DNA of 64,000 bases from an uncultured Actinomycetes bacterium. GTDB lineage: Bacteria; Actinomycetota; UBA4738; HRBIN12. The DNA is taken from positions 939,030 to 1,003,029 of the forward strand of contig CAWEPH010000006.1 in the NCBI GenBank assembly GCA_963810915.1. The letters are read 5' to 3'. Every line of letters begins with the position of its first letter. Position 1 is the stretch's first letter. A program made the translations under genes and the position numbers. Positions 7,103 through 11,046 of the stretch are shown one piece after another. The notes beneath the pieces are model-generated. The model did not search any database, was not told where the DNA came from, and worked only from the letters and a program-made list of their open reading frames with translations.

Positions 7103-7493
7103 TCACGGCGGCGCAGCGCCGGGCGAGGCCACCGGCAGATCGACGACCGCGCGCGAGCGCGCCGTGATGAAACGATCTCCGGGGAGCAACAGCAGCGAGC
7201 CGACGGGAACACGCACATCGACGAGCACCTCCGTGCCTCCGGCGTCACAGGCACACGCCGTGAGGGTGCCGCCGTTGCGCTCCGCGTACTCGGTCGCCAC
7301 CTCCGACGGTTCCATGCCCGTGGAGAACGCCATGCTCCTCGGCGGCGGCGAGCGCGGCGGCGTCCGCCGCCTGCTCCGCGTGCGCGCGTGCCACGAGCGC
7401 GTGCCCGACGTCGGCCGCGCCCATCGTGATGACCACGAGCAGCGCGATCACCGCCGCCGTCACGACGGTCACCGAGCCCCGCTCCTCGCTCAA
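7103..7493 (-). CDS. TadE-like pilus-assembly protein of the actinobacterial helicase/secretion neighbourhood type (TIGR03816-like); apparent frameshift near 7330
   Basis: N-terminal VTVVTAAVIALLVVITMGAADVG...AADAAALAAA signature. The C-terminal NGGTLTACACDAGGTEVLVDVRVPV segment continues in another frame (ORF 7103..7333). Confidence 0.55.
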
Positions 7494-7885
7494 CCGAACT
7501 CCTGACGATCGGTCGAGGTGGCATGCATGGGCACGCTGCCGCCGAACAACCAGTCGATCAACGGCACGCGCACGGCGGAGACGTAGTCCACCGTCACCGT
7601 GACGGGGTCGCCACGGACGCCCGCTCTGCCCACTGAGAGCGAGAGCGCGGCCGGGTCGAGCGAGGGCGCGGCGGCAGCCGCGGCATCGCGGATCGCTGCC
7701 GCATCGTCCTGGAGGGCGGCGGCGCGCGCCCCGGCGCGCGCCGCCGACTCCACCAGCAGCCGGTCCCGGACCAGCAGCCCGACCTGGACGACGGCCAGCG
7801 TGATCACGAGGAGCAGCGGGAGCACGAGCGCGAACTCGACGGCGGCGGTTCCCCGCTCAGCGTCGATGCCGGTCCTACGCCGCAC
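7490..7885 (-). CDS. TadE-family pilus assembly protein
   Basis: N-terminal class-III-like signal/TM with the AAVEFALVLPLLLVITLAV motif typical of TadE/TadF. 4-nt overlap with the downstream gene. Confidence 0.7.
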   Translation of the reverse strand: MRRRTGIDAERGTAAVEFALVLPLLLVITLAVVQVGLLVRDRLLVESAARAGARAAALQDDAAAIRDAAAAAAPSLDPAALSLSVGRAGVRGDPVTVTVDYVSAVRVPLIDWLFGGSVPMHATSTDRQEFG

Positions 7886-8090
7886 CGGCGTTCCCGATCA
7901 CGTCGTCGATCACCTGGTCGAAGAACGCGGGCAGCTTCCCCGACGAGTGCGCCCACGCGATCAGCACGACGGCCACGGCGGCCGCCGCCAGGATCACGAG
8001 CGCGTACTCCGCCGTGGTCTGTCCCTCCTCGCGTCGAAGGAGCCCCAGCGCACGGAACCACAGGACGTGCACGAGCACCATCCGATCCAC
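7875..8090 (-). CDS. Flp-pilin-like / DUF4244 small membrane protein (Rv3656c-like)
   Basis: 71-aa ORF with G-TTAEYALVILAAAAVAVVLIAW, the Flp/DUF4244 hallmark (G/xxxxEY followed by a hydrophobic helix). Confidence 0.6.
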   Translation of the reverse strand: MDRMVLVHVLWFRALGLLRREEGQTTAEYALVILAAAAVAVVLIAWAHSSGKLPAFFDQVIDDVIGNAGAA

Positions 8091-8100
8091 CTCCTCTCGC

Positions 8101-8938
8101 TCAACGGATGGACTGCACGGTGGTGAGCAGCACGGGCACCACCGTCAGGAGGAGGAAGGCGGGGAGGACGAGGAACACGAGCGGGAAGAGCATCTTCACC
8201 GGGCGCGGTGCGGGCCCGCTCGGTGATCGCGGCGCGTCGGGTGGCACGAACCGTCGACGGCGAGCTCGGCCGTCGCTTCGGCCAAGGACGAACCCAACGA
8301 CTCCGTGCGGGTGACGGCCGCCACCGCTCGCGTGAAGTCGGGGAGTCCGAGCCGGCCTGCGAGCGCCCGCAGCTCGTCGCGCCAGCGGGCCCCCAGATCG
8401 ACGCTGTCGAGCGTGCGGCGTAGCTCGCCTGCGAGCGGACCCTGCAGGCCGTCGGTGGCTCGCCGCAGGGCGAGGGGTGCTGCGAGTCCCGCCGACGACC
8501 CGGCCGCGAGGAGGTCGAGGAGCTGCGGGATCTCGGCGTCGATCGCCGTCCGTCGTCGTCTGGCGGCCCGAGCCGCCACGAAGCAGCGGCAGCCTGAGGC
8601 CGACGAGACCGAGCACCGGCGCGATCAAGCGGACCCGGCCCGGGTACGAGGAGCCCGAGCAGGACGCCCGCCCCACCCGTCACCAGACGGAGGCCCGCGA
8701 ATCGCGCCGGGGTGAAGGTCCATCCGCTCGTCGCGAGCGCTGCGTCGGCGCGGGATCCGCGAAGCCGCCGGCCCACCCGAGTCCTGCCGAGCCTCGTCAA
8801 CGGATCGGCGGGAGCGACGCCCGCGTCATCGTGGGCAAGGGGAAGCCGTCGCAGGATGGGGACCGTCGAGGCGGTGCATACGGCCAGCGCACACGCAGCG
8901 GCCGCGCCGAAGGCGAGCAGCATGGTGACCTCCGTCAT
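8101..8938 (-). CDS. TadC-like type II secretion system F-domain membrane protein; reading frame broken at least twice
   Basis: Frame X (8938 down to ~8590) holds the N-terminal TM and an internal TM. Frame Y (8579..8196) holds the T2SSF core (IPQLLDLLAAGSSAGL...). Frame Z (down to 8101) holds the C-terminus (PVKMLFPLVFLVLPAFLLLTVVPVLL). Confidence 0.55.
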
Positions 8939-9758
8939 CGGACCTCGAGGAGGTGCCGGATCCAAAGGAACGCCAGCCCCTCCATCGCGAGGCCGACCGT
9001 CACGGCGGCGATGCCCGCGGGCGTGCGGAACGCGCCCTCGATGTCGCTGCGCGAAGTGAGCCAGAGGAAGCCGAAGAACCCGATGGGGAGGAACCCGAGG
9101 ATCGCGCCGGAGAGGCGTGCCTGAGCGGTGAGGGCTCGCACTTCCTGGGCGGCCGCCCGTCGTTCGCGCAGCGTGACACCCACCTGATCGAGGACCATCG
9201 GGAGATCGCCACCGCTTCGGCGATGCAGGTGCAGGACGCCCGCGAGGAGCCTCGCGTCGCCGGTTCCCAAGCGTCGTCGACCCAGCCGTCGAGCGCGTGC
9301 TCCAGCGGGACGCCGACCGCGAGCTCGTCCACCACCCGACGGATGCTCAAGCTCAACGGGGCGGGCGTCTCCTCGGCGGCGTATCCGATCGCCTGCGGGA
9401 GCGACCGGCCCGCCCGCAGTGCCGCGGACAGCGCCCCCACCGCGTCGGCGAGCTGCTCGTCTTCCGTCGCCGATCGCTTGGCAGCCCGCCGCCTGGTGAC
9501 GAGCCGACGCACGAAGAGGGCGGCGGCGGCTCCCAACGCGGCGCCGAGCGGCGCGACGAGCACCCATCCGACCACCGCGCCCGCGGCCACCCACGGGACC
9601 CAGGTCGGCACCGAACGCATCTGCAAGCCGGCACCGAGCGCCGCTACACCCTCGGGCCGGTGCACGCGTTCCAGCAGCGCCGCTCGCCGATGCGCCGCGC
9701 CAGCCCGGCCGCCGAGCCAGACGAGGAGGAACGCGAGGACCCCGACCAGCGCGATCAT
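8935..9758 (-). CDS. TadB-like type II secretion system F-family membrane protein; apparent 1-nt deletion near 9290
   Basis: The N-terminal part is in ORF 9000..9758 (MIALVGVLAFLLVWL...). The C-terminal part is in the frame of ORF 8935..9765 (GDLPMVLDQVGVTLRERRAAAQEVRALTAQARLSGAILGFLPIGFF). Inserting 1 nt at the junction restores the frame. Confidence 0.6.
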
Positions 9759-9761
9759 GCG

Positions 9762-11046
9762 TCATCTCCCGGCTCGAAGAGGGCTTCCCGCACGTCCTCG
9801 CCGCGGTCCGTCAGCGTCTCGGCCACCTGCGGGACGGAGCCGGTGGCCACGAACGCTCCGTCGATCCCATCCCGCGCCCGGAACCGGAAGAGGGTCGCGA
9901 TCAGCGGCTCGCCCCGGTGCGTGCCTTCCACGGACGGCGATCTCCCAGACCACGCGGCGGCCGTCGCGCAGCCGGGCGAGCTGCACGACGACGTCGACCG
10001 CGGACGCGACCTGGTTGCGGATGTGCGCCGCCGGCAGCTCGACGTCCGACATCATCGCCATCGTCTCGAGGCGCCACAGCAGGTGACGAGCGCTGTTCGC
10101 ATGCGCGGTGGAGAGCGATCCCTCGTGGCCCGTGTTCATGGCCTGCAACATGTCGAGGGCCTCGCCGCCGCGCACCTCGCCGACGATGATCCGGTCGGGG
10201 CGCATGCGCAGCGCGTTGCGCACGAGATCCCGAACGGTCACCTCGCCGCGACCCTCGACGTTGGCGGGCCGGGCCTCCAGGGCCACGACGTGCGGCTTGG
10301 CCAGCCGGAGCTCGGCCGCGTCCTCGATCGTGATCAGCCGCTCCCCGTCGGGGATGAAGCCGCTCAGCACGCCCAAGCAGCGTGGTCTTGCCGCTGCCGG
10401 TGCCCCCGCTCACCACCACGTTGGCGCGGCCGCGGACCGCAGCCTCGAGGAACCGGAGCATGCGCGGTCCCAGGCTCCTGCCCCGCAAGAGGTCCTCGGC
10501 GCGGATGGGCACCTGCGAGAACTTGCGGATCGTGAGCGTGGGACCGCGGAGCGAGAGAGGCGGGATGATCGCGTGGACCCGCGAACCGTCCGGAAGTCGC
10601 GCATCCGCCCAAGGCGATGATTCGTCGACCCGGAGGCCCAAGGGTCCCACGATGCGTTCGATCAGATGCAGGACGGACTCCTCCCCCTCGAATAGCCCAT
10701 CCGGCGCCCTCTCGATCCGCCCCTCCCGCTCCACGTACACGTCGTCGGGACCATTCACCATGACCTCGGTGACGCTCGGGTCTTTCAGCAGGAACTCGAT
10801 GGACCCGAACCCGACGACCTCGTCCGCCACCTCGTTGACCACGCGCGTGAGCTCGCGCTGGGGCAGGATGGCGCCGCCCTGTCGCAGGACGCCCAGCGCC
10901 TCCTCACGCACGCGCACCCGCCGCTCGGTGCGGGGCGCCGACGCGAGGCCGCGCGCATCCACGCGCTCGCGCAGCTGATCCCGCAGGTGCCGTCGCACGC
11001 CCGCGAGCGCGTCCGCGCTCACCTGCGCCTGCTCGCGATCCTCCAC
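9762..11046 (-). CDS. tadA: TadA/CpaF-family secretion ATPase; 1-nt insertion in a ggg run just after the Walker A motif (~10370)
   Basis: [12 protein letters not shown] (Walker A) is in frame A. The next residues ([23 protein letters not shown], then the Asp/His boxes) are in frame B. The N-terminal domain with [16 protein letters not shown] is typical of CpaF. Start is at 11046. Confidence 0.75.

Follow-up and report, generated by a model that had tools for sequence, protein, structure and literature searches.

The subject of this analysis is a Tad/Flp pilus (tad) operon in a 64,000-nucleotide stretch of high-GC DNA (~69%) from an uncultured Actinomycetes bacterium (GenBank assembly GCA_963810915.1, contig CAWEPH010000006.1, positions 939,030 to 1,003,029), which is referred to below, at its full length, as the window. 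Pfam and NCBIfam matches place six tad genes on the minus strand between 7103 and 11046, in the order TadA, TadB, TadC, Flp (DUF4244), TadE and a TadE-like gene of the Rv3654c type. A preliminary description of this DNA had reported that the entire six-gene operon is present and that four of the genes are broken in frame, with only TadE and the Flp-like gene intact, and this holds: TadA, TadB, TadC and the TadE-like gene are the broken ones. In the following list, lengths in amino acids (aa) are given for the broken genes without the inserted bases that are named.

9755..11046, minus strand: tadA, secretion ATPase of the CpaF/TadA type, 429 aa without the inserted bases at 10378 and 9936
8935..9758, minus strand: tadB, platform protein of the T2SSF family, 273 aa without the inserted bases at 9275 and 9281
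8101..8923, minus strand: tadC, second T2SSF platform protein, 272 aa without the inserted bases at 8199, 8258, 8580 and 8630
7875..8081, minus strand: prepilin of the Flp type (DUF4244), intact, 68 aa; PF14029 at 40.5 bits (cut-off 27)
7490..7885, minus strand: tadE, minor pilin or pseudopilin, intact, 131 aa; PF07811 at 52 bits
7103..7472, minus strand: TadE-like gene of the Rv3654c family, 122 aa without the inserted A at 7332

An exact-protein look-up of TadE found the identical protein on two other contigs, both from ENA metagenome assemblies and both with the same gene neighbourhood. These are L082 (ERZ25039602 contig_12166, 485 kb) and L081 (ERZ25039502 contig_93275), and their DNA is 98.8-99.7% identical to that of the window. 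L088 (contig_93276), which is ~90% identical to the window, comes from the same sample as L081, and two related contigs for the tad locus thus occur within one sample. More distant relatives are L001, a metagenome-assembled genome (MAG) of Illumina type that is the closest relative in the genome collection (TadA 89% identical), and L080, a short-read MAG. All six tad genes are intact in L082 (TadA, TadB, TadC, Flp, TadE and TadE-like of 429, 273, 272, 68, 131 and 122 aa, respectively), and TadB, TadC, Flp, TadE and the TadE-like gene are intact in L081. Each tad gene occupies a single frame throughout L001, as do all except the TadE-like gene in L080. Exact-protein look-ups of the 71-aa Flp open reading frame (ORF), of the DUF983 and DUF5318 proteins and of three further window proteins gave no match.

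The domain content of the broken genes becomes coherent when the inserted bases are removed. Fragments of tadA match PF00437 (T2SSE) and TIGR03819, the latter being the best NCBIfam match, and these matches are spread over three ORFs (9901-11046, 9762-10376 and 9755-9931). Repaired TadA contains the Walker A motif GSGKTT, matches PF00437 in a single stretch (209.9 bits) and is 98% identical to the product of the intact L082 gene; its score of 331.5 bits against the TIGR03819 equivalog model lies below the cut-off of 373.15, and membership of that subfamily is formally not reached. The PF00482 (T2SSF) domain of TadB is split between ORFs 9000-9758 and 8935-9765, and is restored by repair to one full domain (61.5 bits; cut-off for this family 25.2 bits) in a protein 99% identical to those of L081 and L082. 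In TadC, the T2SSF match is scattered over four frame segments; the repaired protein reaches 51.3 bits on PF00482, falls within the usual length of TadC homologues (270-290 aa) and is 99% identical to a 272-aa protein (P0001) that is present on two other contigs. The halves of the TadE-like gene lie in ORFs 7245-7493 and 7103-7333, with 39.4 and 19.4 bits on TIGR03816, and together give 56.1 bits on this model (cut-off 50.95) and 32.1 bits on PF13400. The Flp protein, which is 100% identical to its counterparts in L081 and L082, scores 20.8 bits against the Flp_Fap model, under the cut-off, and its translation contains a processing motif, EEG|QTTAEY, of the G/XXXXEY type.

A crude hidden Markov model of the periodicity of GC content at third codon positions flagged frame switches over the window; it confused strands and gene boundaries, and served only to choose regions. 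When the L001 proteins were aligned to the window by tblastn, TadA passed through three frames, TadB through two and TadC through at least three, and the halves of the TadE-like gene lay in different frames, with Flp and TadE unbroken. A three-way base-level alignment with L081 and L082 resolved these breaks into nine lesions, all of which are +1 insertions absent from both contigs. None of the nine occurs in the more divergent L088 either.

7332: window-private inserted base in the TadE-like gene (+A, plus strand), which L081, L082 and L088 lack
8199, 8258, 8580 and 8630: four inserted bases in tadC, private to the window and found in none of L081, L082 and L088
9275 and 9281: two window-private inserted bases in tadB, six bases apart, which bring to 11 nt a stretch that is 9 nt long in L081, L082 and L088
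9936: window-private inserted base in tadA, at codon ~370, from the three-way alignment
10378: window-private inserted base in tadA, within the Leu-Leu codons that follow closely on the Walker A motif, from the three-way alignment

These positions bear out the single frameshift that had been described in the TadE-like gene and amend the other counts. TadC is disrupted as described, but 'at least two' frameshifts was too low a count, the number being four. The apparent 1-nt deletion in TadB is in fact a pair of 1-nt insertions, because a net gain of two bases has the same effect on the frame as the loss of one. In TadA, the extra base after the Walker A motif is real as a feature of the sequence but lies outside the GGG run, whose length does not differ from that in the intact relatives, and the second insertion, at 9936, had been missed. 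An alignment that included L088 seemed to place both tadB insertions in that contig as well; this was a coincidence of alignment and was discarded, since L088 has 9 nt there, as L082 does.

The insertions are not confined to the tad operon. The three-way alignment reveals 15 window-private 1-nt insertions and no deletions between 1 and 10.4 kb (sign test of insertions versus deletions, p=6e-5), and none in the following 6.7 kb, from 10.4 to 17.1 kb (Poisson P(0)=6e-5). Five of those outside tad break genes unrelated to pili.

355: window-private insertion in a mannosyltransferase gene
3147 and 3283: window-private insertions in a sensor histidine kinase gene
3335: window-private insertion, intergenic and ambiguous
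3528 and 3890: window-private insertions in the gene for a class A penicillin-binding protein (PBP)

In both L081 and L082, the PBP gene is intact at 741 aa and the sensor kinase gene at 714 aa. The 852-aa ORF of the window at 3012-5570 arises from artefactual read-through, and the PBP proper is the 741-aa product of 3343-5570.

The preliminary description had left two readings side by side, an operon in decay, with loss of Flp pili, or a locally poor consensus, and the nature of the inserted bases bears directly on this choice. It had noted that the indels are not all associated with homopolymers, which is correct: only 4 of the 15 inserted bases copy a neighbouring base and 11 copy neither neighbour, so that they are not accounted for by replication slippage, from which natural +1 indels usually arise. 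Two specific origins were considered and set aside. Retention in the consensus of both alleles of a strain polymorphism (a 'doubled' single-nucleotide polymorphism) was dropped because the bias in codon position is not significant (12 of 14 insertions adjoin third positions, against 67% by chance; p ~0.1 by a binomial estimate). Systematic error at a methylation motif was rejected untried, as assemblies of the same species lack errors at the same positions.

When the nine bases are deleted, six ORFs free of internal stops result, equal in length to those in L082; the repaired proteins are 96.7-100% identical to those of L081 and L082, and their domain matches become single full-length stretches. 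Neither nonsense mutations nor larger deletions were seen in the repaired tad genes. Relative to L081 and L082, the window also has 85 private substitutions, mostly at ~2.2-10.7 kb, with 13 in 8001-9000. In the repaired frames of the tad genes, these are synonymous in 35 cases and nonsynonymous in 10, which corresponds to a ratio of nonsynonymous to synonymous change (pN/pS) of 0.11 (neutrality rejected at p=8e-12); the figures for the flanking genes are 30 and 6, with a pN/pS of 0.07. Because the private substitutions are biased towards synonymous changes, the window carries a real, slightly diverged allele that has been under purifying selection in the very frames that the insertions destroy.

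Related assemblies carry private insertions of their own. contig_12166 has private +1 insertions at window positions 27634, 28728, 34200, 41005 and 48164, where the window is intact; at 34200, an ACR_tran gene that is 1081 aa long in the window is thereby split into 831 and 244 aa. contig_32170 has one at window position 27130. contig_93276 has six (window positions 4343, 6428, 7121, 10479, 10800 and 10941), which fall where its gene calls for PBP, cupin and TadA are shortened or split. Every assembly thus has its own private +1 set; private indels, hits in unrelated genes and different indels in sister assemblies, the marks of an assembly artefact, are all seen here.

On this evidence, the frame breaks in the tad genes are very probably residual single-base insertion errors in a locally poor consensus (~0.3-10.4 kb) and not a biological feature. 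Comparison of assemblies has shown the insertions to be private, all +1, unlike slippage products and spread beyond tad, and has shown that the genes, once repaired, are intact and under purifying selection; of the two readings offered originally, that of a poor consensus is supported by the private insertions, the unrelated genes hit and the intactness of the repaired genes. The source is probably a long-read metagenome consensus, and polishing may have suffered in a strain-divergent stretch because a minor haplotype had low depth or because reads of mixed strains were piled up there. Both dense patches of indels in the window overlap regions in which strains diverge. The first has ~1% divergence; the second, at 20.2-22.2 kb, lies in tandem paralogues with ~10% divergence (two cyclase copies, ~19762-22549) and comprises six insertions and two deletions relative to the 90%-identical comparator L086, unpolarised in direction, at 20204, 20338, 20841, 21415, 21670, 21756, 21912 and 22141. 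Outside these patches, a further insertion at 28663 and a deletion at 28403 are present in the window.

Several points weigh against this reading. The assemblies on which the call of an artefact depends are 0.3-1.2% divergent and therefore do not represent the strain of the window, and the exact-protein look-ups turned up no other assembly of the exact haplotype of the window. The divergent stretch at 40-45 kb has no insertions, which means that strain divergence alone is insufficient to account for the clustering. The long-read origin is inferred from the 'contig_N' naming of the relatives and from the type of error; a full-text search for the ENA analysis accessions yielded no paper. A small residual uncertainty attaches to the call, which is not read-based and has no further copy of the window's own haplotype behind it.

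Of the alternatives, real and recent pseudogenisation, in which the strain has lost its Flp pili by decay of the operon or by wider erosion of the genome, survives best, and it is nevertheless unlikely. The frameshifts are physically in the sequence, with up to four in a gene, and the tad locus may be naturally disrupted in relatives, such as L081, with ~1.5 kb of extra DNA within tadA, and L080, with an integrase gene and a split TadE-like gene. Decay does not, however, account for an excess of insertions over deletions that is complete between 1 and 10.4 kb, nor for inserted bases that mostly copy no neighbour, nor for lesions of the same kind in the PBP, sensor kinase and mannosyltransferase genes, which lie beyond a dispensable operon. 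It is not credible that genes with so many frameshifts should keep such a low pN/pS and acquire neither nonsense mutations nor larger deletions. Assemblies up to 99.7% identical to the window lack every one of the insertions, and the same insertion-only signature occurs at other sites in assemblies of the same accession series.

A mixture, in which the insertions are mostly errors but include one or a few real inactivating mutations specific to the strain, in tadC or tadA for instance, is quite improbable. Single positions could be decided only by reads, which leaves this explanation some room; the tad insertions are nevertheless indistinguishable from those in the flanking housekeeping-type genes, all being private and +1 and most of them non-copying. 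There is similarly little to be expected of the view that all the insertions are real and that a ~10-kb segment with the tad, PBP, kinase and mannosyltransferase genes was very recently hit by a localised, insertion-biased process that adds non-copying +1 bases; if true, such a process would have inactivated Flp pili and the neighbouring genes before other signs of decay could build up. Programmed ribosomal frameshifting or transcriptional slippage that expresses or regulates the tad genes, for which nothing speaks beyond the frame changes themselves and which the preliminary description already held unlikely, is vanishingly improbable and can be excluded because the comparison with orthologous tad loci that it had proposed found no such frameshifts (the frame continues across these sites in each of L081, L082, L088, L001 and L080), there being also no slippery heptamers or A/T runs at the insertion sites, and nine sites in four genes plus five in unrelated genes being an implausible set.

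A face-value annotation of the window would list no fewer than seven pseudogenes and an Flp pilus system that had been 'lost', and any conclusion drawn from it on the adhesion or competence of this uncultured actinobacterium would be mistaken. An error signature that is patchy and made up of insertions is found in four contigs from three related ENA assemblies, and its description may help the curators of those assemblies.

Several structural differences between the window and its relatives were observed at or near the tad locus. In L081 (contig_93275), ~1.5 kb of extra DNA (6295-7787; 67% GC) lies within tadA, at window position 10104/10105; it contains a fragment like the N-terminus of the hydrolase/cyclase paralogues described below and no transposase, and could be either a real insertion or the product of a chimeric assembly. 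In L080, a tyrosine-recombinase (integrase) gene at 319-1218 takes the place of the first ~140 codons of tadA, which is otherwise 71-79% identical, and the TadE-like gene at 4432-4883 is split over two frames; this may be a real disruption of the tad locus of a relative. L088 (contig_93276) has ~1 kb of extra DNA (8211-9203) within tadE, at window position 7724/7725, and an additional cyclase paralogue between the MFS gene and tadA.

At higher window coordinates, 12969-23854 is occupied by a tandem array of about seven paralogues of ~450 aa each, in which an alpha/beta-hydrolase is fused to an adenylate/guanylate cyclase, and the copy number of this array varies among assemblies. Within it, at ~19980-20225, ~120 nt of the comparator (L082 493-613) align twice, flanking 20102/20103, and two copies of the motif GSDVVVAAGHGQGGAASAL are encoded, each in a frame of its own; the arrangement reflects either a mis-join or, between paralogues, a junction or tandem duplication. 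At the junction 22550/23899, compared with L086 10858-16836, contig_12166 is ~6 kb longer between an ABC permease gene and the cyclase array, and the extra DNA, all of it lacking from the window, encodes an FtsX-family permease and has ORFs of 398, 89 and 380 aa. At ~28440, the sister contigs L083, L086 and L087 have ~1.13 kb more than the window, including a 387-aa ORF that belongs to no known family and is missing from the window; the only window-private indels outside the two dense patches (28403 and 28663) adjoin this breakpoint. Between 40000 and 45000, the window, L084 and L085 are mutually different, with 7-19 differences per kb compared with 0-2 elsewhere and with no indels in the window, and this may be a recombination or hypervariable tract.

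After repair, the locus contains a T2SSE ATPase of the TadA type, two T2SSF proteins, an Flp prepilin and minor pilins of the TadE type. TadA would be the ATPase that powers pilus assembly, TadB and TadC would form the membrane platform, and Flp, TadE and the TadE-like protein would be the substrates. The CpaE/TadZ/Ssd-like ATPase that was looked for beside tadA is not there, the gene directly upstream of tadA being an MFS/cNMP-binding gene. The only homologue, a CpaE/Ssd-like ATPase of the ParA family, is encoded at 44552-45688 on the minus strand, ~34 kb from tad, between a Methyltransf_21 gene and a peptidase_M15 gene. It scores 97.1 bits on TIGR03815, under the cut-off of 154.45, and is 64% identical to the product of the CpaE/Ssd-like gene that lies directly upstream of tadA in L001. 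Peptidase_A24, the family of the prepilin peptidase TadV/CpaA, is not among the Pfam labels of the annotated neighbour genes, no dedicated search of the window having been made. From its sequence, the operon is apparently an ordinary new member of the known actinobacterial Tad/Flp family and looks functional; the distance of the CpaE/Ssd-like ATPase from tadA is its one, mildly unusual trait.

Decaying genomes, for example that of Mycobacterium leprae, have pseudogene-rich operons with deletions, nonsense mutations and relaxed selection, and their lesions are shared among isolates. The tad locus of the window resembles such operons in having several frame disruptions per gene and differs from them in that deletions, nonsense mutations, relaxed selection and sharing of lesions were none of them seen there. 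The layout of the tad genes is that of the actinobacterial Tad/Flp (type IVc) system of M. tuberculosis Rv3654c-Rv3659c. Likeness to the locus of the Rv3654c-Rv3660c type (the 'helicase/secretion neighbourhood' of TIGR03816 and TIGR03819) extends to the gene order, the lack of a secretin, which is expected because of the Gram-positive envelope, and the G/XXXXEY motif of Flp. Differences from this type are the CpaE/Ssd-like ATPase that is not beside tadA, the TadA score under the TIGR03819 cut-off, and the prepilin peptidase, none being seen in the annotated neighbourhood, at which no dedicated search was aimed. Micrococcus luteus owes its natural transformation to a related Flp pilus system (PMC4322843).

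Long-read assemblies are documented to contain artefactual indels that fragment genes (PMC12007338), and the insertions in the window resemble them in being private single-base indels that create apparent pseudogenes across unrelated genes, that disappear against close references and of which each sister assembly has its own set. According to PMC8812927, residual long-read errors are most often errors in homopolymer length; in contrast to these, the errors of the window are almost all insertions and lie mostly outside homopolymers. They differ from the usual long-read errors also in their distribution, being densely clustered at 0.3-10.4 kb and 20.2-22.2 kb rather than evenly spread.

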